Notes under the pieces: model-generated
Seen by the model: the letters and a program-made list of their open reading frames with translations, nothing else
What the model was told of the DNA's origin: nothing
Databases searched by the model: none
Assembly: GCA_025463215.1 (NCBI GenBank)
Contig: JAOBWF010000296.1
Location: 14,098-78,097, forward strand
From: Acidobacteriota bacterium
GTDB taxonomy: Bacteria > Acidobacteriota > Vicinamibacteria > Vicinamibacterales > CAVVIG01
Direction: 5' to 3'
DNA length: 64,000 nucleotides
Shown here: positions 2,709 through 17,896 of the stretch, piece after piece
Position numbering within the stretch: position 1 is the stretch's first letter
Layout: each line of letters begins with the position of its first letter
Made by a program: the position numbers and the translations under genes

Positions 2709-3238
2709 CGCAGCAACAATTCGTTGACGTGTCCGATGCGTTCACTCTATGGCGTGGGCTGCCGCCTTCGATGTCCGGGTTGCATTACTCGCGACGAGTA
2801 CGAAGGCACATCGATTCACACCTGCTAACTTCGTCCGAATTCTGTGCCAGAACCGTGTCACATAACCTTCGGAACCCTGGGGAAACATCGTCATTTACGA
2901 GGACACGCTGAAGCAGATGGTCGTTGCGGGAAGTCGTTGATCGGAAGTGCGTTCATAAGGCGATAGCAATTGCGCTGGCACACCGCGGCGACACGGACGG
3001 GGCGCGCACACATCAGCGCTCGCTCCAGTTCGAATCGCCCAGCCCGGAAGGCGCAATCATCCAGGACGCGTTGGTGCAGGGCGTGCACCGCAGCGAACCG
3101 CTGCAACGCGTCGATCGCGCGCCGGTTCGCTGCAGCGCTTTAGCCAGTGCGCGAGGAGGCTTCGCCCCGCGTTGGTAGCCTGAAAGCCTGCGCCGGATAC
3201 GAACACGTGAAACCGCGACGGCGCGAAGGGGCGGGAAC

Positions 3239-4864
3239 CTATCGAGGGTTTCGACTTAGCCACTCCTCGGTAATGCGCAGTTCGGGAAGGTCGCGATCGG
3301 CGCCATGCCAGTACTGCCGCGCCAACGAGAACTCTGCGCGCGCGCGGCGGTGGTCGCCGGCGTGCACCGCGCAAAGTGCGGCGGCGTAATGAGTGCCGGC
3401 GAACCAGCGATCGTGCCCGAACATTTGGCGGGCGACATTGGCGGCGAGCTCCCAATCGCCCACCTCGCGCGCCGTGCGCGCAATTGCCTGGAGTGTGAAC
3501 AACGCCTGGATCCACTCGTCGGGGCCGGTCTGGCGGCGAAGTGTCGTCACCACGCGGGCCAGCATCGCGCGACCCTTGTCCCTCTGCCCCGTCCTCAAGA
3601 AGAACTCTCCTTGAAGCTCCTCGAAGGATGGCGTTACCAGGCCCGCCCCTTGTGAAATCCCCTTGAGCGTCCGCAGCGCCGTGTTGCTCCGGTCGGCCGC
3701 CTCGGCCAATCGGCCCGCGGAGAGCAAGGCCGCGCCCGTCAGGATGTGACCGGTGGTGGCGACGATCGGGGAGGGGTGCGCGATCATCGTGCCGGCCGCG
3801 GCGATCGCTTCATCCCAGCGTCCTCGATCGATCAAGAACGCCGGCCACTCGCGCTTCGCGAACTCCTCGACGGTCAGCGGTGAGGCGATCGCAAACGCTT
3901 CCCGGAACCGCAGCTCCGCCGACTTCATCTGACCTACGTACTGAAAGGACGTCGCCATCAGATCGAGGTTGTGCTGATGGTGCCAGTCGGCGTCGATCGG
4001 AATGCGCTCCGACCGAGCGTAGTCCGTTTCGAGAGCGTCGGCGGCGAGGAATTCGGCAATTGCCTCGTCGGCCCGTCCGACTCGACGAAGGTCGTGACCG
4101 TACATGTGCCGCGCGTGCGGCACTGCAGGCGCTAGCGTCGCGAACGCGCAGCCGTGCTGCAATGCCTCGTCGATCCTGCCGGCCGACTCGAGCGCGTGGG
4201 TCAGATAGTGATGAGCCGCCGGCGAGTCCGGGTCGATCGCGAGCACGCGTTCGAAATAGATCGTCGATCCGGCAGGTGCTCCCTGACCGCGATCGCCCGG
4301 AGACGGCGACTCCGCCATGCCGCGCAACAACCACATTTCCGTGTCGCGCGGATAATGGACGATAGCTTCGTCGAGCCCGCGACGGTACATGGTGAGACGA
4401 CCGGGATCGCGCGGATGGGCGATCGCATCCAGTTCTAGGCCGCGAAGAGTGATGCGCAGCCGCTCGCGGTCGCTCGACTCCTTCGCCAGCTCTCGCGCGC
4501 GCTCGAGCGCCGAACCCGCCTCGGCCGGCCGATTCAGCTCTCCTTCGGCGTAGCTGAGTCCGAGCTGCGCCATCGCGAGCCGTGAGTCGATGCGCAACGC
4601 CTGGTGAAATGATCGCGCCGCTTCAATCCAGACAAACGCGTGCAGGTACGCAAGGCCTTGATCGTAGAACGCCTGCGCCTCGCCGGACGTGGTCGAGACC
4701 GCCTCGTGCACCGCTCCCATCCCGTGCCGAAGCGGCACAGGCCGATCCAGGAGATCCACCGGCAGCGTCTGCCGTTCGGAAGAACCGTGCGCGTGCTGCG
4801 CGCTGGCAGGAACGAGGACAAGACAGGACAGCAGCGCCGCAAGCGCCGGGCGCGCCCCGATCAC
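3239..4864 (-). CDS. secreted TPR-repeat protein
   Basis: Signal peptide, AQAFYDQGLAYLHAF...EAARSF, Ala-rich helical repeats, His-rich motifs (AHHYLTH, PHARHMYGH). Confidence 0.8.
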   Translation of the reverse strand: MIGARPALAALLSCLVLVPASAQHAHGSSERQTLPVDLLDRPVPLRHGMGAVHEAVSTTSGEAQAFYDQGLAYLHAFVWIEAARSFHQALRIDSRLAMAQLGLSYAEGELNRPAEAGSALERARELAKESSDRERLRITLRGLELDAIAHPRDPGRLTMYRRGLDEAIVHYPRDTEMWLLRGMAESPSPGDRGQGAPAGSTIYFERVLAIDPDSPAAHHYLTHALESAGRIDEALQHGCAFATLAPAVPHARHMYGHDLRRVGRADEAIAEFLAADALETDYARSERIPIDADWHHQHNLDLMATSFQYVGQMKSAELRFREAFAIASPLTVEEFAKREWPAFLIDRGRWDEAIAAAGTMIAHPSPIVATTGHILTGAALLSAGRLAEAADRSNTALRTLKGISQGAGLVTPSFEELQGEFFLRTGQRDKGRAMLARVVTTLRRQTGPDEWIQALFTLQAIARTAREVGDWELAANVARQMFGHDRWFAGTHYAAALCAVHAGDHRRARAEFSLARQYWHGADRDLPELRITEEWLSRNPR

Positions 4865-5373
4865 TTCAGCGCCACCACACGAGCCGGATCGATCCGGACG
4901 ACCAGAATCGTCAGCGTCTCTTCGACGTCGGAAAACCCGTGGGGCGTGCCAGCGGGGATGATCACTAGATCGCCCTTGGTCAGCCGTCGCCGTAGACCAC
5001 CGTCGATCCCATTTCCGGCGACGCCGGGCCCGTTCATCTGCGCCACCACTTCGGTGACGTTCCGGCGGCGCTGTGGGTTCACGATCGCACCGCCGGTCAC
5101 GATCGTCCCGACCCCCTCGAGAATTTCGTAGACTTCGGTGACCTGATCGTGGGACGAGGCGGCGGACAACCGCTCGCCCTTCTCGCGGTAGACGATGCCG
5201 ATGCCGACGTGGTGTCCGCCCGCATCGACGGTACGGATTTCTGTGTCGCTGATCTTGTTGGCGATCGAACGGGCTGCGGTCGCCTCAATTTCTGCGGCGG
5301 TGATCGCCGTCGCCGGGAGCGGTGCCGCGGCGATCACCTGGGCGAACGCGAGCCACGCAAGCACGGTCACCAC
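4861..5373 (-). CDS. secreted cupin-domain protein
   Basis: Cupin motifs H-DQVTEVYEILEG and GDLVIIPAGTPHGF; overlaps both neighbours (translational coupling). Confidence 0.85.
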   Translation of the reverse strand: MVTVLAWLAFAQVIAAAPLPATAITAAEIEATAARSIANKISDTEIRTVDAGGHHVGIGIVYREKGERLSAASSHDQVTEVYEILEGVGTIVTGGAIVNPQRRRNVTEVVAQMNGPGVAGNGIDGGLRRRLTKGDLVIIPAGTPHGFSDVEETLTILVVRIDPARVVALK

Positions 5374-8303
5374 TTCACTTGCATCTCCAGCCTAAGCAGG
5401 CGCGGCTGCAGCACGGTCGACGGCTGCAGATACGACGAGGTCAAGTAGTTCATCGACCGCACAGCGTACGCCGCGTGGTTATTGAACGCGTTGAACAGCG
5501 AAATGCCCGGCTCCAGGCGCAGTTTGCCGATCGCCACGTTCTTGCGCAGCGTCACGTCCATCTGCTTCACGCGATCGGAGAACTCCGTTCCCGGCGGAAT
5601 CAGCGGCACCGACAATGACGCAACGGTCATCCCCGGATCGACGAGCGCTCCAGGCGTGCACGCGCCCAGACAATTCGCCGGGTACCGCGTCGTCGGCGTA
5701 ATCAACCAGGCCGAGCCGGCGGTTGCCGTCCCATAGGTGTACTTGTACGTGGTGTACGAGGCGCCGAGCTGCAGCCCATACCTCAGCGGCATCGATCCCG
5801 CCAGCTTGAACTGCGGGTTCCAAGGAATGCCGTTTTGCGTCTGATCGCAATACAGCAGCATGTTCGGGTTGGTGAATCCATCGCACTGCACGACGGTGGT
5901 ACGATCGGTCGCCGTGCCGCCGAAAAGGGTCGCGCCGCCTGGGAACCGCGCATTGAACGCGATCTCGATCGCGTTGTTCCAGCGCCTCCCTTGCGGATCG
6001 GTGGTGTTGAGATTCAGCACGGCGCTCTGTTTGGCCGCGCTGACGTTGTAGACCGCGATCGGGCTCCCGGTAATCGGGTTGGCGATCGTCGTCAACGTGT
6101 AGTCGCTGAAACTCTGCAGCGTGTTTTGCGTGAGCGCCAGAGCATAGAAATTCGTTCGTACCCAGTTGGCGGTCACCGACACACGCGGCAGCAGTTCGTG
6201 CTGGATTCCGATGTTGTACATCACTTCGTAGGGGCGCTGCACGTTCGGATCGACCTGCGCCGTGCCGCACGGGGTCACGCCTGGCGTCGCAATTGTCGAG
6301 CAGCCAGGCGTAATCAGACCGAAGTTCTTCGGCAGCTGCGCGTAGTTGATCTCGCAGCCGGCGGTGTTGAACGTGCAGCCCGGCGACTGCTGAATGACGT
6401 CGTCGCCGTTCAGATCGCGCCACGTGACAGTGGCCGATTGCAGGCGCATCGGGTTCAGTGCCGCCGCGACACCGTTGGTCGCGGACAGCTCGTACTTGTT
6501 GACGCTGAACTTCACCGCCGTCTTCGCATTGCCGCGCAGATCGTAGACGATGCCGAGACGGGGAGCCCAGGTCTTCCAGATCGGCATGTCCTGAGGACCG
6601 AACGAACGATCCGGGACGTAGACTCCGGCCGTCGAGCTTTCGGCCGCGATCGACGAGTGGAAGTATTCCCACCGCATCCCATAGTTGATGGTCAGGCGGC
6701 GTACCGTCCAGGTGTCCTGTGCGTAGAGGCCCCATTGTGCGTTCATCGTGAAGCGATCCCGCTCGGGCGTGTTGTAGATCGCGGCCGATGTCGGCACACC
6801 GTTCTGATAGATCTGGCCGACCGCGCCGTTCAACGTCGTGCCCTGTTCGAGGAATCCCCACGTGTCCTGCGCCCCGAACTTCATCGTATGGGAACCGCTC
6901 ACGTAAGACGCCGACGACGAGAAGAAGCGGCGCACCGGAATCAAATAGTAGTTGCCGCCCGGGGCGGCATTGGTGACGGTGCCGAGTGACGTGTCCATGT
7001 GGTACGCAGCCGCGAACCATGGCAGCGTGCCGTACGGAGGCTCGACGCCCGGTTGATACGTCGTGTGCCGCTGCGCGCGGTACTCACCGTATCCCGCTTC
7101 GAACAGGAGCCGGTTCGACACGGTGGACGTCCATTTGCCCTGCAGCTGCTGATACAGCTTCGATGGCTCCCACACGCGCGAGGCCTTGACCGGGTCGTAG
7201 CCCGCCAGCATGTCGTGCCCTTCGTACTTGTTCACCCGATCGATATAGGCGGTGAACTTATTGCGTGGCGACAGTTGCGTCGTCAAACGGATCGACGCAT
7301 TCTCCACGTACTGATCGAGGACACCCTGGGTGCCGTCGGGATAGAACGTGTCGGCGACGGCGGTGTTCGCGCTGATCTTACGCGCCGCGGCGAACCACCA
7401 CACGCGATCCTTCACGATCTTTCCGCCCAGGCCGCCTTCGAGGTCGTAGAGCCCATCGAGCGAATCGCCCTTGGTCAACCCGCGCGCGATCAAATCCGGC
7501 GAAATGCTCGCCGCCTGCCACGTGTGCCGGCTGCCGTAAGCGTTCATCGAGCCGTGCAGATCGTTGCCGCCCTGACGAGGCACCATGTTCTGGCGGACGC
7601 CGCCAGTCGAGACGTCGGCGCCAGAGGTGGTGGTTTGGAAGACCATCTCCTCGTAGGACTGCGTGTTGGTGTACGCCTGGGTCGAGCCGTTCCCGCACAT
7701 GCCGTTCAGCTGAATGCCGTCGAGCGTCACCGTGGTCTCCTGTCCGGCGTTGCCGTGGAGCAGCATCCCGACCTGGTTCATCGCGTGCGCGCCACCGACG
7801 TCCGGCTGCGCATTCGTCACACCGGTGACCAGCTGTCCGTACGACTGCGCGGTCCGGCCGGTCGGAATTGCGTCAAGGATCTCGCGACTCATCACCTGCC
7901 CCTTCGCTGCGCTCTGCACGTCAACGACGGGCGACGCGCCGGAGACGGTGACCGTCTCCTCGAGCTCGCCGACCCGCAAATCGGCATTCACCGTCGCCGT
8001 GAAGTCGGTCGGCAGCTCGATCGCATTGCGCCGCACCGTCGAGAAGCCCTGGAGCGAAACCGTGATGCTATACACGCCGGGTCTCAGGTCCCGGATCTGA
8101 TACGCGCCGCGATCGTCGGTGGTGACCGACCGGATTTTCTCGATCAGCTGCGGGCTGGCGACTTCCACCGTGGCGCCGGGAATCACCGCGCCGGTCGTAT
8201 CTTTCACCACTCCGACAATGGCGCTCTGCGCACGGGCAATGCTCGGACAGAACGCGAGGCACATCAGCGCGACGACGAACGACTTTCCTATCAGTCTGCG
8301 CAT
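5367..8303 (-). CDS. Oar-like TonB-dependent receptor with N-terminal carboxypeptidase regulatory-like domain (paralog 1)
   Basis: GVVKDTTGAVIPGATVEV..LRPGVYSIT, ETVTVSG, C-terminal beta strand ..MQVKW; ATG 8303 preceded by GGAGGAG. Confidence 0.9.
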   Translation of the reverse strand: MRRLIGKSFVVALMCLAFCPSIARAQSAIVGVVKDTTGAVIPGATVEVASPQLIEKIRSVTTDDRGAYQIRDLRPGVYSITVSLQGFSTVRRNAIELPTDFTATVNADLRVGELEETVTVSGASPVVDVQSAAKGQVMSREILDAIPTGRTAQSYGQLVTGVTNAQPDVGGAHAMNQVGMLLHGNAGQETTVTLDGIQLNGMCGNGSTQAYTNTQSYEEMVFQTTTSGADVSTGGVRQNMVPRQGGNDLHGSMNAYGSRHTWQAASISPDLIARGLTKGDSLDGLYDLEGGLGGKIVKDRVWWFAAARKISANTAVADTFYPDGTQGVLDQYVENASIRLTTQLSPRNKFTAYIDRVNKYEGHDMLAGYDPVKASRVWEPSKLYQQLQGKWTSTVSNRLLFEAGYGEYRAQRHTTYQPGVEPPYGTLPWFAAAYHMDTSLGTVTNAAPGGNYYLIPVRRFFSSSASYVSGSHTMKFGAQDTWGFLEQGTTLNGAVGQIYQNGVPTSAAIYNTPERDRFTMNAQWGLYAQDTWTVRRLTINYGMRWEYFHSSIAAESSTAGVYVPDRSFGPQDMPIWKTWAPRLGIVYDLRGNAKTAVKFSVNKYELSATNGVAAALNPMRLQSATVTWRDLNGDDVIQQSPGCTFNTAGCEINYAQLPKNFGLITPGCSTIATPGVTPCGTAQVDPNVQRPYEVMYNIGIQHELLPRVSVTANWVRTNFYALALTQNTLQSFSDYTLTTIANPITGSPIAVYNVSAAKQSAVLNLNTTDPQGRRWNNAIEIAFNARFPGGATLFGGTATDRTTVVQCDGFTNPNMLLYCDQTQNGIPWNPQFKLAGSMPLRYGLQLGASYTTYKYTYGTATAGSAWLITPTTRYPANCLGACTPGALVDPGMTVASLSVPLIPPGTEFSDRVKQMDVTLRKNVAIGKLRLEPGISLFNAFNNHAAYAVRSMNYLTSSYLQPSTVLQPRLLRLEMQVKW

Positions 8304-8372
8304 ACAGCTCCTCCTCCGGAGCAACCGCGATCGGTCGCTTGCTGCACGATCCTGGACAGGTCTCATAGAGCG

Positions 8373-10310
8373 TTACGGCGTGCCGCCGCGGCCGCCGCCG
8401 AGCGCGAAAGCGACCAGCGCGTTGTCCGCGCCGGTGCCGGTCGCCATGACAATGAATTGCTTGCCCGACGCGGTGCGGTAAGTCATCGGGTTGGCGTTGT
8501 TGGTGTACGGCACGTTGCCGCGCCAGACTTCGCTGCCGGTCAGCGTGTCGAAAGCGTAGAGGTAGCCGTCACCGCCGCCGATGAACACTAGGCCGCTCTT
8601 GGTCACCATCGCCCCGCCGCGGCTGTTGGGGGATCCGAGACGATCGGGCAGGACGACCCCTTTCAGCAGCGGGTTGTTACGCAGCGACGGGCTGCCCTCG
8701 CCGAGTGGCACCTTCCACGCGATCGTCCCCTTGCTCAGATCGAGCGCCGTCAATACCGCGTACGGCGGCGAATTGAGCGGAAGCCCGCGAAGGGTCATCT
8801 CTTCGGCGCCACGCGCGAACATGTTGGAGTACTCGGGATCGACCAGCGCGTCGGTGCCATCGTTCTTCGCGACGCGATTGCGGCCGATCGAGTGCGCCGC
8901 GCGCACGAAGAGGTAACCGCTCCCCGGATCGAACGCGGCGCCTCCCCAGCTCGCGCCGCCGCCCTGCGACGGGCTTTGCAGCGTGCCTTCAAGCGACGGT
9001 GGCGTGTAGAGCGGGCCAAGGCGGTACTTCTTCATCTCCGCCTGCGCCATCGCCTTGATCTCCGGCGTCAGATTGTTCGCGTCCTCGAGCGTGACGCCCT
9101 GGTCGACAAACGCCGGCGGCTTGCTCGGGATCGGCTGCGTCGCGTACGGCTGCTCGCCGGGCACGTTGCTGTCACTCGGAACCGGCTTCTCGACGATTGG
9201 CCACACCGGTTTGCCGGTCACTCGATCGAACACATACGCGAAGCCCTGCTTGGTAACCTGGGCGATCGCGTCGATCTTCCGGCCGTTCACGGTGATCGTC
9301 GCCAGCACCGGTGGCGCGGGATTGTCATAGTCCCACAGCCCGTGGTGGACTTCCTGGAAGTACCACTTCATCCTCCCGGTCGCGACGTCGAGGCAAACGA
9401 CCGACTCCGCGAATAGGTTGGCGCCTTTGCGATCGCCGCCGTAGTAGTCGCTGCTCGGCGTCGTGGTCGGCAGATAGAGCAGCCCGCGCGCCTCGTCGAG
9501 CGCCATCGGCGCCCACACGTTGCCGTGGCCGTTCTTCTTCCACGACTCGTCGTCCCACGACTTGGCGCCGGCATCGCGCTCCGACATCGGGATCACCGCG
9601 AAGACCCACTCGCGCTTGCCGGTCCGCGCGTTGATGGCCTGGACCTGTCCGACCGGATCGGCGGACTGGACACGATCGGGGACCTGGCTGCCCATGATCA
9701 CGAGGTCTTTGTAGATGATCGGCGGCGAGCTCTGCGTCACATGCGTGAAGTCCGAGACGCGCTGGAGACCGTCGGTGAGCGAGACCGCGCCGTTGTTGCC
9801 GAACGAGGCGACCGGCCTGCCGGTCTTGGCGTCGAGCGAGAACAGCCGGTGCCGGCTGTTCAGGAATATGCGCAGCTTGTCGCCGTCGCGCCAGAACGCC
9901 GTTCCGCGCAGCTTCCAGCCGCTGCCGGAGAGCACCTGTCCGAGCTTGTAGGCCTCTCCATCAAAGCGCCATAGCTCTTTGCCCGTTTCGGCGTCGAGCG
10001 CGGCGATGCTGTTGTACGGTGTCGTCACGTAGAGGACACCGTCGATCATCAACGGCGTGCTCTCGAAGAAGCCCGGGACCGTGCCGTAATCCGGCAGCGG
10101 CGTTTCCCAGTGCTTCCACTGCCATGCGACGTGCAGCTGCGACAGGTTGTCCTTATTGATGTCGGTGAGCGCCGAGTACTTCATTCCGCCCTGATCGCCA
10201 CCGTAATAGGGCCACTCGACCTGCTTGGGCGGTTCGGCCACGGCCGCAGCCAGCCACGAGCCGGTGACAACAACTGCCAGAACCGACAACACCTGCTTCA
10301 TCACCGGCAC
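8373..10310 (-). CDS. PQQ-dependent dehydrogenase, quinoprotein glucose dehydrogenase-like (soluble, periplasmic)
   Basis: WPYYGGD..YSALTDIN, FESTPL, HHGLWDYD, Trp-docking repeats; signal peptide, no N-terminal TM anchor. Confidence 0.9.
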   Translation of the reverse strand: MPVMKQVLSVLAVVVTGSWLAAAVAEPPKQVEWPYYGGDQGGMKYSALTDINKDNLSQLHVAWQWKHWETPLPDYGTVPGFFESTPLMIDGVLYVTTPYNSIAALDAETGKELWRFDGEAYKLGQVLSGSGWKLRGTAFWRDGDKLRIFLNSRHRLFSLDAKTGRPVASFGNNGAVSLTDGLQRVSDFTHVTQSSPPIIYKDLVIMGSQVPDRVQSADPVGQVQAINARTGKREWVFAVIPMSERDAGAKSWDDESWKKNGHGNVWAPMALDEARGLLYLPTTTPSSDYYGGDRKGANLFAESVVCLDVATGRMKWYFQEVHHGLWDYDNPAPPVLATITVNGRKIDAIAQVTKQGFAYVFDRVTGKPVWPIVEKPVPSDSNVPGEQPYATQPIPSKPPAFVDQGVTLEDANNLTPEIKAMAQAEMKKYRLGPLYTPPSLEGTLQSPSQGGGASWGGAAFDPGSGYLFVRAAHSIGRNRVAKNDGTDALVDPEYSNMFARGAEEMTLRGLPLNSPPYAVLTALDLSKGTIAWKVPLGEGSPSLRNNPLLKGVVLPDRLGSPNSRGGAMVTKSGLVFIGGGDGYLYAFDTLTGSEVWRGNVPYTNNANPMTYRTASGKQFIVMATGTGADNALVAFALGGGRGGTP

Positions 10311-10401
10311 CTCTCGCTCGTTAACTGAACTGCGGTCGAGAGCGTCTTCATTGGGACAAATAAGTCGGTGTCAAGAAACAAATTCGTCGGCATCCGCGTG
10401 A

Positions 10402-10484
10402 TGTATAGAGGACCCACCCGCAGACTGCAACCGTTGTGGGACGAATGGCAGTCGGCAGGGGCCAACGGCAATTGCCGGGTACAC
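10402..10484 (-). promoter_or_regulatory. putative sigma70 promoter (TTGCAG-N17-TATACA) with upstream 20-bp-period repeats (candidate LytTR sites)
   Basis: On + strand: TATA 10404-10407, CTGCAA 10425-10430, GGGACGA 10438, GGGGCCA 10458; same architecture at 17979-18060. Confidence 0.6.
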
Positions 10485-10628
10485 GTGCTCGTGGATGGTG
10501 ACGCTGTCGTCTCGACATAGTCACCGTCGTGTCACGTCACGCGCGTGCAGTGACGTCCGATTACCCAGGAGGAGGACGAAAACCAGAGTTGTCAGCGACC
10601 AGGGTGATCGGTAGAATGCCGCCTACCC

Positions 10629-11822: not shown

Positions 11823-11836
11823 ATCCGGGAGGAACA

Positions 11837-12628
11837 GTGATTAACACTCTCATCGTTGATGACGAGCCGTTGGCCCGCGAAGGGATCCGGCTGGCCTTGA
11901 AAGGCGAGGCCGACGTGCGCATCGTGGGAGAGGCCGCCGACGGCGAGGCCGCTTTGAACGCGATGGAGAAACTGGCGCCCGATCTTATGTTCCTCGATAT
12001 CCGGATGCCAGGGTTGAACGGCTTCGACGTGCTGGCACGCGCCAGCCACAGCCACACCCGTATGCCGGTGATCGTGTTCGTGACCGCGTTCGATCGTTAT
12101 GCGGTCAAGGCGTTCGAAGCGAACGCGCTCGACTACCTGCTGAAACCGGTCGAGCCACAGCGGCTCAGGGCGGCGGTCGAGCGGACGCGGGCCGAGCTGG
12201 CGAAACAGGAAATCATCAAGGACGCGAAGCGGCGCGCCATGGATCTGCAGAGTGTCGAAGAGCGGCCTGTGGCGCCGCGATCCAGCGAGCCGCTCGCGCG
12301 AGCCGAGTATCTCGACCGCGTCGCTGTCCGCGTCCGCGATCGGTTCCTGCTGATCAAGATGAACGACGTTGACTGGATCGAGTCGGCCGCCAACTACGTG
12401 CAGCTGCACTCGCGGTCCCGATCGTTCCTGCTGAGAATGACGATGGGCGAGCTCGAAGCAAAGTTGGACCCGCACCGTTTCTCGCGCATCCATCGATCGA
12501 CGATCGTGAATATCGATCGGCTCGTGGAGGTCAAGCCGTCGCTGCACGGCGATTTCGACGTCGTGCTGCAGGACGGCACGACGCTGCGCATGAGCCGCGG
12601 TTACCGCGAGGCGCTGCTGCCGCGATAA
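11837..12628 (+). CDS. LytTR-family response regulator
   Basis: Receiver LIVDDEPLAR/FLDIRMP/DYLLKP; LytTR FSRIHRSTIVN..SRGY. Confidence 0.95.
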   Translation: MINTLIVDDEPLAREGIRLALKGEADVRIVGEAADGEAALNAMEKLAPDLMFLDIRMPGLNGFDVLARASHSHTRMPVIVFVTAFDRYAVKAFEANALDYLLKPVEPQRLRAAVERTRAELAKQEIIKDAKRRAMDLQSVEERPVAPRSSEPLARAEYLDRVAVRVRDRFLLIKMNDVDWIESAANYVQLHSRSRSFLLRMTMGELEAKLDPHRFSRIHRSTIVNIDRLVEVKPSLHGDFDVVLQDGTTLRMSRGYREALLPR

Positions 12629-12649
12629 TCTAGACTACTGAGCCGGCTT

Positions 12650-12952
12650 CTATTTCGCGGCGCTCAGCGCCTTCAGGTACGCGAACACCTGCTTGACTTC
12701 GTCGTCGCCCATCGACGCCTTGGATACCGGCGGCATCTCGCCGCCGCCTTCGCGGACGCGCGCGACGAACTCATCGACCTCCATGTCGATCGGCACGAGG
12801 CGCGGAGCCGCATCGCCCCGCCCCTCGTCGCCGTGACAGGTTGCGCAGACGCGATCGAACGGCGCTTTTCCGGCCGGCGGCTGGGCCTGGCCGGACATCA
12901 TCACCGCGGAGGTTAGCAGCGTCGCAGCAATACCGAGCGTGAAGGCGCGCAT
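12650..12952 (-). CDS. monoheme class I cytochrome c
   Basis: Signal peptide MRAFTLG.., CATCH, distal Met in GEMPP. Confidence 0.88.
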   Translation of the reverse strand: MRAFTLGIAATLLTSAVMMSGQAQPPAGKAPFDRVCATCHGDEGRGDAAPRLVPIDMEVDEFVARVREGGGEMPPVSKASMGDDEVKQVFAYLKALSAAK

Positions 12953-13043
12953 AGGGATCACCTGATTAAATGACGGGACAGACGAAGAGGCGGTACGGCT
13001 GGCGACTCTTCGAGCGTGTACAACCGACCGGCCGAACCTTCTT

Positions 13044-14882
13044 CTATTGCGGTAGCGCAAACACCCACACGCCAAACCCTGCCTGCGGCCAGTGGACTTC
13101 GGGGTTCAGTTCCCTCGCGACCGTCGTGATCCAATTGTGCGACATCGACGCGCCGGTGATGAAGGCAAAATATTGCCGCCCCTTGACCCTGAAAGTGATC
13201 GGACTCCCTTCCATCTTCGTCGCCATCCGCGGCGACTTCCACAGGATATTGCCGGTGCTGAGATCCAGCGCGTACATGTAACGATCCGTGTCGCCCACAA
13301 ACACCAGACCGCCGGCTGTCGTCATAACCGGTGTGGAGAACTGCGTCGCCTGCCGGTGCGTCCAAAGCGTCTTGCCGAACACGTCCATCGCCAACACCTG
13401 TGCCGCCAGACCCTTGAAGTCGGGATGGAACAGGTTGACCCGGCAGCATTCCCCTCCGTACTCGTCAGCACCCGACCCGGGGGTGTAGACCCGAGTGCTG
13501 CAGTTGAGCGACATTGGAATGTAGAACGCCTGGGTGGCGGGGTTGTAGGACATCTGCCGTGAATTCTTGAAGCCGGACGTGCTCGGGCACGTGTAGACCG
13601 GCTGCCCCATCGGAGCGTCGATCACTTCCGGGCGGTAGCGCACGAACCCTCGCTCGGGATCGATCTCCATCATGTTCTGCAGGCCGGTGTCCGTCGCTCG
13701 GATCAGGCGACCGGTCTGCCGATCGAGGTGCCACAACACGCCGGACTTCCCCATCTCGAAACCGGACTTGCGCGCGTATCCGGGAATGTCGACGTTGATG
13801 AATTCGTAAATCTCGTCGAGGTCGAAACTCTCGCCAGGAACGTACTGATGGTACCAGGCCATCTTGCCGGTGGCGGTGTCGAGCGCCAGCGTCGAATCGG
13901 TGTAGAGGAGCGACATGCCGTCCTTCTCACCGCGGCTCTTCCGATGCCACGGCTTCGCCTGCGTCGCGCCCCAGTAGGTCAGATGCAGGATCGGATCAAA
14001 GCTGCCGGTAATCCACGGATTGCCGCTGGTGGCGCCGCGTTTCTCGAGCGGGATCCCTTCCCACGTGTCGCCGCCGGGCTCACCGGGCGCCGCCGTCGTG
14101 TAGGTCCGCCACGCGCGCGCGCCGGTCTTGGCGTCGATCGCTCCGATGAAGCAGCGGACCCCCTGCGCACAGTCAACGCCGGAGATGATCTTTCCATCGG
14201 CGGCGAGCCCAGTACCCGACGAAGGGGTGTGACCATCGCCCGCATCGTACAGCGAGCCCTCGAACGCCTTGGTGCCATCGCGAACGTTGATCGCGTCGAT
14301 CTTGCCGTCGGCCGGATGAATGAAAGCCTTGTCCTCGTAGAGGACGATCCCGCCGCGGATGCCGCCGGTCGCCCCGGCCGACGTGCCTTTCGCCATCTGG
14401 TGGCGGTACTGCCACAGAAAATCGCCGGTCGCGGCGTCGAGTGCATGCACCACGCCACCCGGCATGCTGAGATACATGACCCCGTCGTGGACGATGGGGC
14501 CGACCCAATCATCCACGTTCGGTGAGGCGCCCTTCTCGATCCCCCACGACCACACCAGTTGCAGGCCGCGGACGTTGCTCTTGTTGACTTGATCCAGCGG
14601 GCTGAAACTCTGAGCGTCGTAGGTGCGCCGGTACATCAGCCAGTCGCCGGGATCCGGATTGCGCAACATCGCATCGGTGACCGGCCGGGTGGTGGTCACC
14701 GTGCGGTTGATCGGCGACCGAACCGGCGGCTTGTAATTCCGTTGCGCTTCCGACTGCTCCGCGCTGCGGCCGCGTCCCGCCGGGGCCTGACCGGCTTGCT
14801 CCTGCTGTGCCACCGGCGCATCCTGGCTCGTAGCCAGGACCAGCGCGAGCAGCGACAACACCCACGTGACTCGAGTTCGCAT
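13044..14882 (-). CDS. PQQ-binding beta-propeller, alcohol-dehydrogenase-like
   Basis: DWLMYRRTY..FSPLDQVN, GPIVHDGVMY, TAGGLVFVG, SPITF..GRQY; signal peptide. Confidence 0.88.
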   Translation of the reverse strand: MRTRVTWVLSLLALVLATSQDAPVAQQEQAGQAPAGRGRSAEQSEAQRNYKPPVRSPINRTVTTTRPVTDAMLRNPDPGDWLMYRRTYDAQSFSPLDQVNKSNVRGLQLVWSWGIEKGASPNVDDWVGPIVHDGVMYLSMPGGVVHALDAATGDFLWQYRHQMAKGTSAGATGGIRGGIVLYEDKAFIHPADGKIDAINVRDGTKAFEGSLYDAGDGHTPSSGTGLAADGKIISGVDCAQGVRCFIGAIDAKTGARAWRTYTTAAPGEPGGDTWEGIPLEKRGATSGNPWITGSFDPILHLTYWGATQAKPWHRKSRGEKDGMSLLYTDSTLALDTATGKMAWYHQYVPGESFDLDEIYEFINVDIPGYARKSGFEMGKSGVLWHLDRQTGRLIRATDTGLQNMMEIDPERGFVRYRPEVIDAPMGQPVYTCPSTSGFKNSRQMSYNPATQAFYIPMSLNCSTRVYTPGSGADEYGGECCRVNLFHPDFKGLAAQVLAMDVFGKTLWTHRQATQFSTPVMTTAGGLVFVGDTDRYMYALDLSTGNILWKSPRMATKMEGSPITFRVKGRQYFAFITGASMSHNWITTVARELNPEVHWPQAGFGVWVFALPQ

Positions 14883-14962
14883 GACCAACCCTCCCCAACG
14901 ATCATTCCGGAGCGGCCACCGTAGCCTTCCGGCAGTGTCTGCTCACTTGTCCGAAGCGACCC

Positions 14963-17896
14963 TCACCACTTCACCTGCATGCCGAGCCGGACAATCCGCG
15001 GCGGAAGAATCGTCGACGGCTGAAAATAGGATGTTGTCGCGTAGTTGAAGGAGCGGAAGCCGTACGCCGCCAGGCTGTTGAGCGCGTTGAACAGGCTCAA
15101 CTCGGGCTCGACCTTGATTCTGCCGACCGTGATCCACCGGCCGACGTTAATATCGAGCTGGTTGATGCGATCGCTCGATTCGGTGCCCGGTGCGATCAAC
15201 GGCACCGACAGCGACGCGACAGTCATGCCGGGATCGACCAGCGCTCCCGGTGTGCACGGTCCGGTGCAATTCGCCGCGTAGCGCGTGGTCGGCGTGATCA
15301 GCCACTGCGTGCCGTAGTTGGCGGTGACGTTACCGACGGCGGCGCCGCCAATCATGTACTTGTAGCTTTGAAATGACGCTCCCAGCGTGATGCTGTAGGG
15401 CAGCTGCATCGATCCGGACAGCTTCATGTTGATGAGCAACGGAATGTGGCTGGCGCTCTGGTCACAGTACAGCAGGTTGTTCGGATTGGTGGGATCGTCG
15501 CAGGCGATCTGAATCGTCCGATCCATCGACAGGCCGCCGAACAGCACTGCGCCCCGGCTCAGGCGCGCCGAGAAGCCGAATTCGGCGGCGTTGGTCCACT
15601 TCTTCGCGTTGGGATCGTTGGTCAACAGATTGAGCACTTTGGAGCGCGCGGCGGCACTGACGTTGTAAATGGTGATCGCGCTGCCGTCCAGCGGACTCGC
15701 GATCTGCACCGGAGTGTAGTCGGACGACTGCTGTGCCGCGTTGTAGGTCATCCCCAGATCGTAGAACTCGGTGTGGAAGTAGTTGGCGTTGACCGACACT
15801 CGCGGGAGCAGCTCACGCTGAATCCCCAGGCTGTACTGCAGATTCGCGCCGCGCTTGCGGTTCGGATCGAGTTGGCTCGTGGCGCAGGCCGGTACGCCGG
15901 GGGTGGCAATCACCGAACAACCCGGCGTCACGGTGCCGAAACCGGCCGGGAGCTGCGCCAGATTGAGCTCGTTGGTCTGCGCGATGTTGTCCTTGTTCAG
16001 GTCGTTCCACGTCACGGTCGCCGACTGACTGCGGATTGGATTGTAGGCGTTGGTCAGTCCGTCGGTGAGCTGGGTCTGATACTTGTTGACGCTGAACTTG
16101 ACCGCGGTCTTGCCGTTGCCGGAGACATCGTAGACAACGCCAAACCGAGGATTGAGGCTCTTCCACGTCGGAAACGTATCGCCGCCGTAATTTCGGTCGC
16201 CGACGAACCGCCCCGGTCCCACGACTTCGGCAGGGATCGACGCCCCGAAATCTTCCCAGCGCAATCCGGCGTTGACCGTGAACCGTTTCGCGGTCCATGT
16301 GTCCTGACCGTAGAGGCCCCAGAACGCATCCATCGAATTCGAATACCGCACCGGCGTGTTGAAGATGGCGGCGGATGTCGGCACGCCGTTCTGGTAGTTC
16401 AGCTCGAGGTCGCCGTTCTTGTCGTAGGCGAACGTTTCGAACCCCTTCTGATCCTGAACACCGACTTTGATGTTGTGCGACCCGGTGACGTAGGTCACGG
16501 ATCCGTCGAAGAAACGGCGCGTCGGATCCTGCGTCGTCGGTCCGATCGGCGCGGCGCCGGTCAGCGTTCCGAGCGACAGATCCCGGTGCGTCACATTGGC
16601 GAGCCACGCCGCCGATCCGTACGCCAGGCCGTAGCAGCTGCAATTGGGCTCGTACGAGTTGGTGCGGTACGCCTGGTAGTGGTTCGACCCGGCTTCAATC
16701 AGCAGCCGGTTCGACGCCGCGAACGTCCACTTGACCTGCGCCTGATCGTAGAGCGGCGACGGAGAGGTGAGGATGGCCGCGCTCGGCGCCTGTCCGCCGC
16801 TCATCGCCGCGCCGATGAACTTCCAGACGCGATCGTAGTAGCCGTTGAGCTGCATGCGCGAATTGAGCTGGCCACTCAGCCGGAGCGAGCTGTTCTTCAC
16901 ATACTGCGGGTTCACACCCTGAGTGCCATCTGGATTGAACGTGTCGGCGACGAGCGTGTCGACCTCGTTCTTGCGCGCCGCGGCAAACCACCACAGCCTG
17001 TCCTTGATGATTTTGCCGCCGAGACCGGCTTCGTAGTCGTAGATCTTGTCGAAGCTGTCGCCCTTCGTCAGGCCCCGAGCGACGAGATCGGGCGACAACG
17101 CATTGGCCTGCCACTTGCCGCTCGCGAACGCGAGGGCGCCGGATCCGTGAAATTCGTTTCCGCCTCGCCGTGTGATGAGGTTCTGACGCACGCCACCTGC
17201 GGACACGTCGGCGCCCGCGCCGCTGTTCTGGACGACGATCTCCTGGTAGTTCTGAGTGTTCGAATACGACTGTGTCGCGCCGTTACCGCACATGCCGTTG
17301 AGCTGAATGCCGTCAAGCAGCACGGTCGCCTGTTCGCCGGCCATTCCGTGCGCCTGTGACGCGTTCTGGTTCATGCCGTTCGAGCCGGCGACATCCGGCG
17401 TCCCCATGACGACGCCCGGCACGAGTGCCGCGGCGGTCTGAGCGCTGCGTCCGGTGGGAATCGCGTCGAGCACTTCGCGGTTGAGCGTCTGCGACTTCGC
17501 CGTGCTCTGAACATCGACCACCGGCGACGCGCCCGATACCGTCACCGTCTCTTCAAGCGCGCCGACGCGTAGCTCCGCATTGACGGTCGCGGTGAAGTTA
17601 CTCGGCAGCTCCAGAGCTTCGCGTTTGACGACGCTGAAACCGCCAAGCGTGAAGGTCACGGTGTACGTGCCAGCCACCAAGCCGACGACCTGATACACGC
17701 CGCGATCGTCCGAGGTGACCGCGCGCACTTTCTCGATGAGCGCCGGGCTCGCCGCTTCCACCGTGACGCCAGGCAGCACCGCGCCCGACGTGTCTCTAAC
17801 TACCCCAGCGATCGCACTTTGTGCGAACGCCGCTGACGGCGCCAACCAGGAGCCGACCATCGCGAGCATCAACCAGAGTCCGCCCTTCAATCGCAT
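14963..17896 (-). CDS. Oar-like TonB-dependent receptor with carboxypeptidase regulatory-like domain (paralog 2)
   Basis: GVVRDTSGAVLPGVTVEA, GIQLNGMCGNG shared with paralog 1, ends MQVKW; ATG 17896 after GAGAGG. Confidence 0.9.
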   Translation of the reverse strand: MRLKGGLWLMLAMVGSWLAPSAAFAQSAIAGVVRDTSGAVLPGVTVEAASPALIEKVRAVTSDDRGVYQVVGLVAGTYTVTFTLGGFSVVKREALELPSNFTATVNAELRVGALEETVTVSGASPVVDVQSTAKSQTLNREVLDAIPTGRSAQTAAALVPGVVMGTPDVAGSNGMNQNASQAHGMAGEQATVLLDGIQLNGMCGNGATQSYSNTQNYQEIVVQNSGAGADVSAGGVRQNLITRRGGNEFHGSGALAFASGKWQANALSPDLVARGLTKGDSFDKIYDYEAGLGGKIIKDRLWWFAAARKNEVDTLVADTFNPDGTQGVNPQYVKNSSLRLSGQLNSRMQLNGYYDRVWKFIGAAMSGGQAPSAAILTSPSPLYDQAQVKWTFAASNRLLIEAGSNHYQAYRTNSYEPNCSCYGLAYGSAAWLANVTHRDLSLGTLTGAAPIGPTTQDPTRRFFDGSVTYVTGSHNIKVGVQDQKGFETFAYDKNGDLELNYQNGVPTSAAIFNTPVRYSNSMDAFWGLYGQDTWTAKRFTVNAGLRWEDFGASIPAEVVGPGRFVGDRNYGGDTFPTWKSLNPRFGVVYDVSGNGKTAVKFSVNKYQTQLTDGLTNAYNPIRSQSATVTWNDLNKDNIAQTNELNLAQLPAGFGTVTPGCSVIATPGVPACATSQLDPNRKRGANLQYSLGIQRELLPRVSVNANYFHTEFYDLGMTYNAAQQSSDYTPVQIASPLDGSAITIYNVSAAARSKVLNLLTNDPNAKKWTNAAEFGFSARLSRGAVLFGGLSMDRTIQIACDDPTNPNNLLYCDQSASHIPLLINMKLSGSMQLPYSITLGASFQSYKYMIGGAAVGNVTANYGTQWLITPTTRYAANCTGPCTPGALVDPGMTVASLSVPLIAPGTESSDRINQLDINVGRWITVGRIKVEPELSLFNALNSLAAYGFRSFNYATTSYFQPSTILPPRIVRLGMQVKW

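Follow-up and report, generated by a model that had tools for sequence, protein, structure and literature searches.

Two operons in the 64,000-nucleotide stretch of DNA from a soil acidobacterium analysed here (the window) each combine an Oar-subclass TonB-dependent transporter with a PQQ-type dehydrogenase, a pairing that recurs in related genomes and in metagenomes. On balance, and with considerable doubt, we favour the reading that they form a regulated envelope unit that would import a substrate and oxidise it in the periplasm with scavenged PQQ. The unit spans positions 3239–18265, where two minus-strand operons have a LytS-family kinase/LytTR regulator pair between them; Pfam matches and open reading frames agree with the gene content and order that an earlier, sequence-only reading had described for these twin operons.

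Operon A (minus strand) comprises PQQ enzyme A (8373–10310), a soluble eight-bladed quinoprotein of the glucose/quinate/shikimate dehydrogenase type, followed by the transporter OarA (5367–8303; 978 aa from M22), a Cupin_2 protein (4861–5373; 170 aa; PF07883, 29.4 bits) and, as the last gene, a TPR-repeat protein (3239–4864; 541 aa). The TPR start and the cupin stop share 4 nt, and the cupin gene overlaps the OarA stop by 7 nt. Operon B, also on the minus strand, opens with OarB (14963–17896; 977 aa from M124), a paralogue of OarA, and continues with PQQ enzyme B (13044–14888), a soluble quinoprotein of the alcohol/sorbose dehydrogenase type, and a monohaem c-type cytochrome of ~100 aa from M42 (12650–12952; PF13442, 48.4 bits). 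The kinase (10629–11822) and regulator (11837–12628) are encoded on the plus strand, the former separated from PQQ enzyme A by a divergent intergenic region (10311–10628). Divergent from OarB, and possibly associated with the unit, is a gene for a metallo-beta-lactamase-fold (MBL) protein (18394–19587, plus strand). Three of the open reading frames extend upstream of the starts used here: OarA (5367–8366; likely start M22 at 8303), OarB (14963–18265; start M124 at 17896, set by orthologue alignments and equal to the coordinate at which the earlier reading had ended the region) and the cytochrome (12650–13075; likely start M42 at 12952). Inspection of the sequences indicated signal-like N-termini on all products of the unit, including the cupin and, as a hydrophobic segment, the TPR protein. 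The region appears to be correctly assembled: 2800–19800 is tiled by contigs of run X1, which is probably the source sample, and a single contig of X2, from another sample, covers 8361–10927, a stretch with the beginning of OarA, PQQ enzyme A and the beginning of the kinase. The regulator/cytochrome junction (12628–12650) is bridged by X1 record 7 and by none of the X2 contigs listed. Scans for promoters (one promoter-like site, shuffle mean 2.3) and terminators (11 terminator-like sites, shuffle mean 9.3) were uninformative.

OarA and OarB are identical at 567 of 1,008 aligned positions (56%), as expected of the paralogues they had been taken to be. Sequence and model together indicate that both have the features of the Oar subclass, namely an N-terminal extension, a TonB-box region with a plug, a large plugged barrel and a C-terminal aromatic residue. 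The extension matches PF13620 (CarboxypepD_reg) at 66.6 bits in OarA and 50.9 bits in OarB (cutoff 32.3), OarA matches PF25183 (OMP_b-brl_4) at 85.4 bits, and OarB matches the plug family PF07715 at 28.2 bits (cutoff 23.9). No Pfam plug match was obtained for OarA at E≤0.001; the stretch in question aligns closely with the OarB plug. Residues E116, V120, G122, P125, V127 and D128 of the EETVTVSGASPVVD stretch, which by resemblance we take to be the TonB box, are invariant in 17 homologues. The AlphaFold model of OarA (pLDDT 69.7, pTM 0.70) matches solved TonB-dependent transporters, among them PirA, FusA, YddB, PqqU and PfeA, with a Foldseek probability of 1.00 and E-values of 1e-24 to 1e-18; a PDB sequence search with OarA returned no match at E≤0.01.

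The sequence-only reading had also drawn attention to unusual Cys-containing segments (GIQLNGMCGNG, PGCSxIATPGVxxC and ITPTTRYxANCxGxCTPGALVDPGM) and to the ending MQVKW. All of these are present in both transporters, but their rarity is confined to part of them. Among 33 aligned family members, C224 in the plug and the pair C689/C700 are limited to three (OarA, OarB and the orthologue at locus L009), whereas the pairs C828/C840 (27 and 30 of 33), C664/C671 (22 of 33) and C899/C903 (18 and 19 of 33) are family-wide; the C-terminal aromatic is likewise ordinary, as W or F ends 28 of the 33. A link to a Cys/Met motif was not found in the available part of a paper on copper TonB transporters (JBC 2026, PMC12914433).

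PQQ enzyme A matches PF01011 over its full length (638.9 bits, 1–595 of 595), and enzyme B does so in two stretches (158.8 bits). Neither is a member of a curated NCBIfam subfamily among those compared: enzyme A scores 422 bits against TIGR03074 (membrane GDH/quinate/shikimate; cutoff 832.65), enzyme B 317.5 bits against TIGR03075 (methanol/ethanol; cutoff 480.05), and the two score 241 and 251 against TIGR04528 (acido-empty-quinoprotein group A; cutoff 650). Alignment indicates that enzyme A lacks the N-terminal transmembrane region of E. coli Gcd. The columns of Gcd W404, D466, D468 and K493, presumably the stacking Trp, the catalytic Asp, the Asp two positions on and the Lys, are invariant in nine GDH-like proteins including enzyme A, and correspond to W292, D356, D358 and K381 of enzyme B, in columns invariant in eight proteins. 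The best solved relatives of enzyme B are 22vi, 4mh1 (sorbose dehydrogenase), 9m2c, 7wmd and 4cvb. Both quinoproteins have ordinary Sec signal peptides.

The cytochrome has a signal peptide and a single CXXCH motif (CATCH, residue 77 of the long open reading frame), and orthologues of 50–55% identity occur in the metagenome loci L052, L056, L063 and L064. An orthologue of the cupin (56%) lies inside the OarB–PQQ_B operon of L063. Pfam assigns the TPR protein to generic TPR families and to nothing else; orthologues (43–54%) are located beside PQQ_B orthologues in L054–L056, and a paralogue (54–57%) adjoins a PQQ-like gene on contig C31 of this genome (G000). Its single-sequence fold is poor (pLDDT 47.9), too weak for comparison with a SusD-like fold. 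Among NCBIfam models the MBL protein matches "quinoprotein relay system zinc metallohydrolase 2" best, with 38.6 bits against a cutoff of 280. No SusD-family or CAZyme Pfam match was found in 3239–19587, and by Pfam neither operon encodes a substrate-specific enzyme (CAZyme), a SusD-like lid or an inner-membrane transporter, so that any cargo is a guess and the unit is not a classical PUL. Of the earlier proposal of a PUL-like unit in which import is coupled to quinoprotein oxidation and cytochrome c, the linkage is borne out by its enrichment and recurrence, while the glycan sense of the term is not supported.

The link between transporter and quinoprotein is not chance. In G000, 5 of the 21 PQQ genes are within two genes of an Oar-type transporter, compared with a mean of 0.69 in 20,000 within-genome shuffles that kept contig structure, 11 of which reach 5; three have an Oar-like gene as immediate neighbour, a count that averages 0.37 in the shuffles and reaches 3 in 88 of the 20,000. 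Counted as Oar/PQQ pairs with a gap of ≤1.5 kb, there are 5 in G000 against 0.56 expected, and the same excess is seen in two near-complete relatives, G005 (4 against 0.51) and G018 (3 against 0.43); the gene labels used for these counts missed further G000 pairs on C5, C147 and C31. A conserved receptor–PQQ linkage in relatives had been set beforehand as the deciding test, and it was found, as enrichment in three genomes, in several gene orders and in metagenome orthologues. The set of transporter, PQQ enzyme and cytochrome c recurs in several arrangements: PQQ→cytochrome c→Oar (G000:C45 and L047) and PQQ_B-like→cytochrome c→Oar (L036), alongside PQQ→Oar→MBL, with the MBL gene after the transporter (L012, L014, L015 and L028), PQQ→Oar with no called MBL gene (L011, and a contig-end pair on G000:C391), Oar→PQQ→ThuA→lactonase-like protein (L046) and PQQ–x–PQQ–Oar–Oar (L009 and L044). 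A second batch of loci was partly selected for adjacency. When the 20 closest Oar homologue loci were taken with neighbours ignored in the choice, a PQQ gene was directly upstream in six, one of them fragmented. In the transporter tree, PQQ-adjacent members are spread over separate clades with unlinked transporters in between, and the label has to change at least three times. Against the uptake–oxidation reading, 16 of the 21 PQQ genes in G000 are not beside a transporter.

The closest relative of the unit in a genome, and the single locus returned by a related-locus search of genome contigs with OarA, is L009, where the OarA orthologue (80% identical) follows a PQQ_A orthologue and the OarA and OarB orthologues are in tandem. 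In metagenomes, PQQ_B orthologues (69–89% identical) were found at 17 loci, with cytochrome c in four, a cupin in one, TPR proteins in three and an amidohydrolase in six; 15 of these loci have upstream context, and OarB orthologues (57–75%) adjoin the PQQ_B gene in eight, an adjacent Oar being absent in the other seven. Four of the metagenome loci extend far enough upstream of an OarB on the same strand, and in all four this OarB has orthologues of the kinase and regulator divergently upstream, although these loci probably represent two or three populations, L061 and L062 being near-identical. The pair there is on the opposite side of OarB relative to the window, so the twin layout around the regulator pair, while present in the window, is not a fixed arrangement. 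Among eight loci chosen solely as 42–47% PQQ_B homologues, an adjacent Oar was found in one, gene picking having missed the PQQ gene in two of the eight; marine homologues of 42–44% adjoin an amino-acid-permease fusion instead, which also counts against the uptake–oxidation reading.

The pairing recurs in relatives that are apparently unable to make PQQ. The absence of pqq biosynthesis genes, first remarked for the window, extends well beyond it: pqqC was found in none of 13 genomes of the genus and none of 19 of the family, with 4 of 61 genomes of the order serving as positive control. In G000 itself (87.9% complete), pqqC and pqqB gave no match and pqqE gave only sub-cutoff radical-SAM matches. 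A PqqU homologue was likewise found in none of the 13 genus genomes (full-length homologues were detected elsewhere in the order, in G029, G027 and G024), yet each of the 13 has 12–31 PQQ-domain matches. Some other route must supply PQQ, and the Oar transporters are candidates. Searched with E. coli PqqU, G000 gives its highest score, 43.7 bits, for a transporter on contig C5; OarA and OarB are not among the G000 matches and thus are not PqqU homologues by this measure. The C5 transporter and the 711-aa transporter at 573–2708 of the window were both considered as PqqU and rejected, as PDB searches with each rank CirA/siderophore receptors first, with YncD/PqqU absent or far down and the similarity restricted to the plug.

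The lack of both pqqC and PqqU is what gives weight to cofactor import, an alternative already raised by the sequence-only reading and taken here to mean that the Oar transporters bring PQQ or a PQQ–metal complex to the neighbouring apo-quinoprotein. There is a precedent in P. aeruginosa, where the available text of a preprint gives PqqU (PA2289) and Gcd (PA2290) consecutive locus tags (bioRxiv 10.64898/2026.04.27.721047). The OarA model also superposes on PqqU (rank 4, TM 0.71, target-normalised), but it fits all the other TonB-dependent transporters too, sequence similarity to PqqU is confined to the generic plug, and OarA has no PDB sequence match. We consider this alternative unlikely. At least 5–8 distinct transporter–quinoprotein pairs in one genome, differing in clade and enzyme, would be uneconomical for a single 330-Da cofactor, and the paralogue clades closest to OarA and OarB have no PQQ neighbour. 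An Oar→PQQ pair is also present in G027 despite its pqqC and full-length PqqU homologue, and the transporter there is thus not needed for PQQ supply. A shade less likely still, in our view, is the broader form of this idea, in which, throughout this Vicinamibacteria-type genus, Oar transporters beside quinoproteins would constitute a second, unrelated family of PQQ or PQQ–metal importers, each serving its neighbouring apo-enzyme under its own regulator.

The regulatory genes belong to the LytS/LytTR type. The kinase has a membrane N-terminal region followed by His_kinase (PF06580, 83.8 bits) and HATPase_c (PF02518) domains, and the regulator joins a receiver (PF00072) to a LytTR domain (PF04397). 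The 5TM LytS sensor domain is absent among the Pfam matches of the kinase, suggesting that its membrane sensor part is of another kind. Kinase orthologues (56–57%) are divergent from OarB in L060–L063, compared with 33–37% identity for the nearest in-genome paralogue; the regulator has orthologues (55%) in L060–L062, and its best NCBIfam match, BtsR, scores 186.6 bits, below the cutoff of 246. Upstream of OarB, 122–162 nt from its start, is a triple direct repeat with a 20-bp period, GTCCC-N15-GTCCT-N15-GTCCC (18014–18058, minus strand), with a fourth GTCCC at 18095–18099. The pattern GTCCY-N15-GTCCY-N15-GTCCY has its sole instance here in the 5.79-Mb genome, both strands counted (0.053 expected). 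An equal three-repeat architecture with the 20-bp period lies 100–140 nt upstream of the OarB orthologues of L060, L061 and L063, the upstream region of L062 matching that of L061, and GCGTCTCGTCCC is invariant in the alignment. LytTR sites are described, in the accessible part of one study, as repeats of 9–11 nt spaced 11–13 nt apart (PMC4847170). The triple repeat fits a LytTR operator and is a conserved candidate site for control of operon B by the regulator.

For operon A the evidence is a shared 10-mer. Between the divergent genes for PQQ enzyme A and the kinase, GTCCCAATGA (10348–10357 on the operon strand) has the exact sequence of the promoter-proximal repeat that precedes OarB, and the genome has it at these two places only. 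The upstream regions of both operons have in common the 10-mer TCATTGGGAC; a shared 10-mer of any sequence arises in 66 of 300 shuffles and so is not significant alone, and the reason for retaining this one is that it falls on the promoter-proximal member of the triple repeat. Neither in the window nor in L009 did a repeat with the 20-bp period turn up ahead of the PQQ enzyme A gene. Operon A is probably also under the LytTR regulator.

These regulatory data bear on the reading that there is no direct coupling, the pairs reflecting general clustering of envelope genes or inherited ancestral neighbourhoods. In its favour, both families are large (some 50 Oar-like and some 20 PQQ genes, most of them unpaired), related genomes are non-independent samples, and one batch of loci was, as noted above, partly selected for adjacency. 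We nevertheless hold this reading to be more doubtful again than PQQ import: the contig-preserving permutation gives only 11 in 20,000, the same parts recur in other orders and other clades, and the kinase–regulator pair has been kept with OarB–PQQ_B through rearrangement, as has the upstream repeat.

It is very unlikely that the transporters instead import the active-site metal of the quinoproteins (chelated lanthanide or calcium) or some different metal, with the free Cys next to Met in GMCGNG forming part of a metal site. Both enzymes do have a DxD motif (WDYD and FDLD), a lanthanide marker in the literature, and C224 is unpaired and confined, in the 33-member alignment, to OarA, OarB and the L009 orthologue. 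E. coli Gcd, a Ca/Mg enzyme, has the DxD as well (D466 and D468, invariant), so that in this clade the motif has no diagnostic value. It is present in all 485 GDH-type enzymes of the set described in the available part of a recent preprint (bioRxiv 10.64898/2026.07.10.737718). TonB-dependent lanthanide uptake is known in methylotrophs from such parts of that literature as were accessible, but the same preprint text places lanthanide transporters with PqqU-like receptors of ~700 aa, not with Oar types (10.64898/2026.07.10.737718). The multiplicity of pairs argues against metal import as it does against PQQ import, and the window shows no gene for lanmodulin, an ABC importer or chelator biosynthesis. 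Least likely of all is that the transporters move the neighbouring quinoprotein, cupin or TPR protein to the surface or medium, in the way that the protease PopC of Myxococcus xanthus depends on Oar, of like architecture, to be secreted from the periplasm (PMC6434023, accessible text), given that this export by a TonB-dependent transporter is a single case, that PopC has no Sec signal peptide (same text) whereas the quinoproteins do, and that a monohaem cytochrome c of the periplasm recurs as partner, which is sensible only with periplasmic oxidation.

Under the favoured reading of substrate import with periplasmic oxidation, OarA and OarB would bring in through the outer membrane one or several organic substrates that are scarce or bulky, most plausibly sugar-like or polyol-like compounds or related alcohols or lactols. 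A soluble, Sec-exported dehydrogenase of the PQQ type, transcribed together with each transporter, would oxidise what has been taken up, enzyme A presumably acting as a glucose-dehydrogenase type and enzyme B as an alcohol/sorbose-dehydrogenase type. The monohaem cytochrome c encoded with them may then hand the electrons on to the respiratory chain, and products may be handled by periplasmic accessories, here the cupin and TPR protein, in related cassettes an amidohydrolase or MBL-fold hydrolases. Judging from the repeat pattern, the LytS-family kinase and LytTR regulator would switch on at least operon B through the triple direct repeat upstream of OarB. The organism is predicted to make no PQQ, and the enzymes would depend on scavenged cofactor.

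Several known systems have parts of this design. PULs and TonB-dependent carbohydrate utilisation loci combine a transporter with a CarboxypepD_reg-type extension, periplasmic enzymes that process the cargo and a dedicated sensor/regulator. The unit resembles them in keeping transporter, periplasmic enzymes and sensor/regulator together and in the many paralogous cassettes per genome, but it is without a SusD-like lipoprotein, glycoside hydrolase or lyase, its enzyme is an oxidoreductase feeding cytochrome c, and its barrel is of the PF25183 type. The Pseudomonas ped cluster and the systems of acetic acid bacteria take up small substrates via porins in organisms that make PQQ, and to our knowledge their core units have no dedicated TonB-dependent transporter. 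Accessible accounts of these systems do share with the unit a soluble PQQ alcohol dehydrogenase, a dedicated c-type cytochrome and two-component control. The gcd–pqqU locus of P. aeruginosa, as far as the available texts describe it, likewise sets a TonB-dependent transporter beside a PQQ glucose-dehydrogenase-type gene in a PQQ-scavenging organism (PMC12124388; bioRxiv 10.64898/2026.04.27.721047). Unlike PqqU (YncD), OarA and OarB are ~980 aa long, have an N-terminal extension, lack specific similarity to it and belong to a set of several pairs per genome.

M. xanthus Oar can be likened to OarA and OarB by architecture, with a PF13620 extension, a TonB box and plug, and a barrel, but it functions in protein secretion and development, and a quinoprotein neighbour is not reported in the accessible portion of that paper (PMC6434023). 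The XoxF3 clusters of Acidobacteria and Gemmatimonadetes, in the part of their description available, also bring together a PQQ dehydrogenase, cytochromes and a TonB-dependent receptor, and in addition a YncE-like beta-propeller, with no comment on the receptor in that text (PMC10875860); they are methanol-dehydrogenase systems with cox genes and NRAMP (same partial source), whereas the enzymes here are of the GDH and sorbose/alcohol-dehydrogenase types. Like in concept are the six-bladed PQQ enzymes in CAZyme clusters, for which oligosaccharide import, periplasmic PQQ oxidation and electron flow to cytochromes have been proposed (bioRxiv 10.64898/2026.07.10.737718, available text). Those enzymes differ in fold, by their blade number, from the two here, their clusters hold CAZymes, and the text available does not analyse a specific transporter pairing (10.64898/2026.07.10.737718). 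No described Oar–quinoprotein cassette was found among the papers that the literature searches listed, as far as these are openly accessible.

Acidobacteria are among the most abundant soil bacteria and have dozens of Oar-type transporters; in this lineage there are many quinoproteins too, almost all without a known substrate. From a recurring set of transporter, PQQ dehydrogenase and cytochrome c, with a sensor of its own and a recognisable candidate operator, one can predict the enzyme that each transporter would feed. The set further points to the oxidation of scarce organic compounds in the periplasm as a source of energy, and it provides a promoter and regulator pair open to testing. It also sharpens the question of where quinoprotein-rich bacteria without pqq genes and PqqU obtain their PQQ, the lack of both making these bacteria dependent on PQQ producers in the community.

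The window holds two minus-strand operons, A and B, called from the ORF listing, codon-position GC, and Pfam and NCBIfam scans. Operon A comprises PQQ enzyme A (8373–10310), the TonB-dependent transporter OarA (5367–8303, counted from its likely start), a cupin with a signal (4861–5373) and a TPR protein (3239–4864), the last three genes overlapping or almost abutting. Operon B encodes the paralogous transporter OarB (14963–17896), PQQ enzyme B (13044–14888) and a monohaem cytochrome c with one CXXCH motif (12650–12952). The stretch separating the operons encodes, on the plus strand, a His_kinase/HATPase_c sensor kinase (10629–11822) and a receiver-LytTR regulator (11837–12628); this pair runs divergently from enzyme A and converges on the cytochrome gene. 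The transporter-quinoprotein unit contains no CAZyme, SusD-like protein or inner-membrane transporter. The source, G000, is a metagenome-assembled genome of 5.79 Mb in 441 contigs (completeness 87.9%, contamination 7.2%); the whole region is tiled by contigs of the probable source run, and one contig of a second soil sample reaches from OarA across enzyme A into the kinase gene.

Adjoining the unit, 19601–24139 encodes an FMN-dependent alpha-hydroxy-acid dehydrogenase, a beta-propeller weakly similar to YncE and to PQQ-catabolism-associated propellers, a multihaem c-type cytochrome and a DUF1259 protein. Farther away, two neighboring genes with aldo-keto-reductase domains (one protein of 942 aa) precede those of a three-subunit xanthine-dehydrogenase-type molybdenum enzyme with 2Fe-2S, MoCo-binding and FAD subunits (53241–61500), and a 645-aa protein (33687–35624) has two CarboxypepD_reg domains plus a Big_1-like stretch but no barrel.

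OarA and OarB show 56% identity across 1008 aligned positions and share the Oar-subclass architecture (PMC6434023): an N-terminal CarboxypepD_reg extension, a conserved EETVTVSGASPVVD stretch taken here as the probable TonB-box region, a plug and a large barrel. OarA has no PDB match by sequence. An AlphaFold model built from 17 homologues (pLDDT 69.7, pTM 0.70) matches solved TonB-dependent transporters with a Foldseek probability of 1.00; the top ranks include PirA, FusA, YddB and the PQQ importer PqqU, with no preference among the matches that would indicate a cargo. The receptor motifs quoted in the sequence-only reading are all found in both proteins, and its description of them as unusual holds in part. 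In a comparison of 33 aligned family members, the MQVKW terminus is an ordinary aromatic barrel ending and three cysteine pairs are family-wide, while C224 and the C689/C700 loop are confined to 3/33, namely OarA, OarB and the orthologue at related locus L009. C224, in the numbering of the long OarA ORF, is an unpaired plug cysteine adjoining a methionine, in GIQLNGMCGNG.

At only 25% identity, enzymes A and B represent separate branches. The closest family to enzyme A is that of the membrane glucose/quinate/shikimate dehydrogenases, whose membrane anchor it lacks, and enzyme B is nearest to solved soluble alcohol and sorbose dehydrogenases. Both look like working PQQ enzymes, because the residues aligned with W404, D466, D468 and K493 of Gcd, the E. 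coli PQQ glucose dehydrogenase, are kept. The DxD motif is commonly taken as a lanthanide marker, according to a 2026 preprint (10.64898/2026.07.10.737718); since E. coli Gcd has it too in the same alignment, the motif is unable to decide the metal.

The link between transporter and quinoprotein genes is real and beyond chance. G000 has 49–51 Oar-like and 21 PQQ-like ORFs, and PQQ labels were shuffled 20,000 times across its 4642 picked genes with the contig structure kept. An Oar-like gene is the immediate neighbor of three of the 21 PQQ genes (shuffled mean 0.37; at least three in 88 of 20,000 shuffles) and is found within two genes of five (shuffled mean 0.69; at least five in 11 of 20,000). 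Both adjacency and the number of PQQ genes are under-counted here because 14 of the 21 PQQ-like ORFs run up against the end of a contig; the PQQ paralogue family seems to break the assembly. Three further pairs were missed by the permutation labels: on contig C5, a GDH-like enzyme and then a CarboxypepD_reg-plug-barrel transporter; on C147, an Oar-like gene and then a PQQ-like one; and on C31, a series of cytochrome c-like, TPR, PQQ-like, 448-aa and Oar-like genes. In the C5 cassette (L031, 4829–16945) the enzyme, of the soluble GDH-like type, directly precedes the transporter (CarboxypepD_reg-Plug-TonB_dep_Rec), after which come two radical-SAM genes and a GMC oxidoreductase; the transporter is the best G000 match to E. 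coli PqqU, at a generic 43.7 bits.

The sequence-only reading had looked to relatives for a conserved linkage of receptor and PQQ enzyme, and such a linkage is present. Counting pairs with a gap of at most 1.5 kb, from full PF01011 and PF13620 match lists plus fetched loci, two near-complete relatives hold four pairs against 0.51 expected (G005) and three against 0.43 expected (G018); these genomes and G000 are related and non-independent, and each is to be read singly. Among the 20 best OarA homologue loci of relatives, selected blind to their neighbors, six have a PQQ gene directly upstream (one of the six is fragmented), and four of these six also have a gene of metallo-beta-lactamase (MBL) fold downstream. 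Cassette orders include PQQ-Oar-MBL; PQQ-cytochrome c-Oar, in G005 and on contig C45 of G000; PQQ_B-like-cytochrome c-Oar, in a different family within the order; Oar-PQQ-ThuA-lactonase-like; and PQQ-x-PQQ-Oar-Oar. In a quick tree, PQQ-adjacent transporters form separate clades interleaved with unlinked ones, with at least three label changes; two of these clades contain rows fetched for their adjacency, so that the tree shows multiplicity and not frequency. More distant homologues of enzyme B are mostly unlinked to Oar: an adjacent Oar gene was found in one of eight relatives' loci picked solely as 42–47% homologues, in two of which the gene picker missed the PQQ gene. At individual loci, an Oar gene adjoins an enzyme B homologue in L069 and a classical transporter does so in L111. 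Marine homologues of 42–44% identity (L074, L083 and similar loci) lie directly downstream of a fusion of amino-acid permease, EIIA and TrkA_C, a different, inner-membrane transporter partner.

MBL-fold proteins beside the cassettes hint at a wider PQQ-associated accessory set. The best NCBIfam match of the one at 18394–19587 is "quinoprotein relay system zinc metallohydrolase 2" (38.6 bits, cutoff 280), and a protein in L012 (11876–13009) has the same best match at 97.2 bits, also under the cutoff.

Closer orthologues of this unit preserve its parts more than their arrangement. L009 has the order PQQ, amidohydrolase, PQQ_A orthologue, OarA orthologue (80%) and partial OarB orthologue (70% over 404 aa), with the two transporters in tandem and no kinase-regulator pair upstream of PQQ_A. 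Scanning metagenomes with enzyme B left 80 retained loci, of which 17 show 69–89% identity; 15 of those 17 have upstream context. An OarB orthologue (57–75%) is adjacent in 8/15, placed directly upstream on the same strand in six, divergently in one and three genes away in one. At all four loci whose sequence continues upstream of a same-strand OarB, kinase (56–57%) and regulator (55%) orthologues are divergent from it, except that the L063 contig ends within the kinase gene and shows the kinase alone. These copies are taken as orthologues because the nearest in-genome paralogues are just 33–37% identical; with L061 and L062 near-identical, the four loci probably stem from no more than two or three populations. 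Cytochrome c genes lie beside the PQQ_B orthologue at four loci, TPR orthologues at three and a cupin orthologue at one, and a PF01979 amidohydrolase does so at six. This amidohydrolase (352–538 aa), absent from the window, recurs by orthologues of enzyme A or B in L052, L058, L059, L061, L063, L071 and L009; its best NCBIfam match, a Caulobacter-type Xaa-Pro dipeptidase, is far under cutoff. In L062 an OarA-like gene (67% over 126 aa) follows the regulator gene, placing the sensor pair again between two transporter units. Thus, of the twin operons proposed around one pair, the parts list is conserved but the exact layout is specific to this genome, as would be expected for a functional unit.

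The operon strand carries GTCCC-N15-GTCCT-N15-GTCCC upstream of OarB (18014–18058, 122–162 nt ahead of the start codon), with a fourth GTCCC 41 nt further up. The pattern GTCCY-N15-GTCCY-N15-GTCCY has this single occurrence on both strands of the 5.79-Mb G000, where 0.053 are expected from the pentamer's own frequency. Three GTCCC units with a 20-bp period are located 100–140 nt upstream of the OarB orthologues in L060, L061 and L063, and the L062 region matches that of L061, these three units included. An alignment of the five upstream regions contains an invariant GCGTCTCGTCCC block, the array in the window being offset by two units from the other four. L062 also has two GTCCC units 20 bp apart between the regulator and OarA-like genes. 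LytTR regulators are reported to bind 9–11-nt repeats separated by 11–13 nt (PMC4847170), and the triple repeat, whose spacing fits such sites, is a candidate LytTR operator. No periodic array was found upstream of enzyme A. The sequence GTCCCAATGA, 47 nt ahead of the enzyme A ORF start, exactly matches the promoter-proximal unit in the OarB array, and this 10-mer occurs in just these two places in the genome. Because some shared 10-mer arises in 66/300 shuffles, the match is not significant alone and does no more than suggest that operon A is under the same regulator.

The absence of pqq biosynthesis genes, first noted for the window, extends to the genome: G000 (87.9% complete) shows no pqqC or pqqB, and a pqqE search gave only weak radical-SAM matches. 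No pqqC was found in 13 genus or 19 family genomes searched; the search works, since 4/61 genomes of the order were positive. With the E. coli sequence from the K-12 record as query, full-length PqqU homologues (28–31% identity) were detected in three genomes of the order and in none of the 13 genus genomes, each of which has 12–31 PF01011 matches. A published survey reports PqqU in only 17 Acidobacteria, all Vicinamibacteria, and suggests that the others depend on diffusion or their own synthesis of PQQ (PMC12124388).

The favored reading is that a substrate would be taken in by the Oar transporter and then oxidized in the periplasm. It is favored because there are many distinct transporter-enzyme pairs per genome, because a periplasmic cytochrome c is the third component that keeps recurring, and because accessory hydrolases differ between cassettes, as in substrate-specific loci. 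Sugar-like or related polar compounds are weakly indicated as cargo by the sorbose dehydrogenase among the solved relatives of enzyme B and by the ThuA-like, lactonase-like, MBL or amidohydrolase genes in some cassettes. Import of PQQ itself by the Oar transporters keeps real weight, given a genus without any known PQQ route and the precedent of P. aeruginosa, in which PqqU (PA2289) adjoins Gcd (PA2290); on the other side, a pair exists in the related genome G027 despite its own pqqC and PqqU homologue, which argues for substrate import and oxidation. Transport of a metal and Oar-type export are less likely accounts of the transporters, as is mere co-location of the genes.

The logic of substrate import coupled to periplasmic oxidation resembles, and combines, that of PULs and of pseudomonad periplasmic oxidation systems. 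An import-then-oxidize idea has likewise been proposed, in the 2026 preprint, for six-bladed PQQ enzymes in CAZyme clusters (10.64898/2026.07.10.737718), and acidobacterial XoxF3 clusters are drawn with a TonB receptor in a 2024 paper, apparently without discussion in the accompanying text (PMC10875860). In the literature searched we found no description of a recurrent cassette of Oar-type transporter, 8-bladed quinoprotein and cytochrome c with a LytTR system. The Oar/PQQ unit supplies testable transporter-enzyme-regulator triplets, and brings to light the question of PQQ supply in a quinoprotein-rich lineage.
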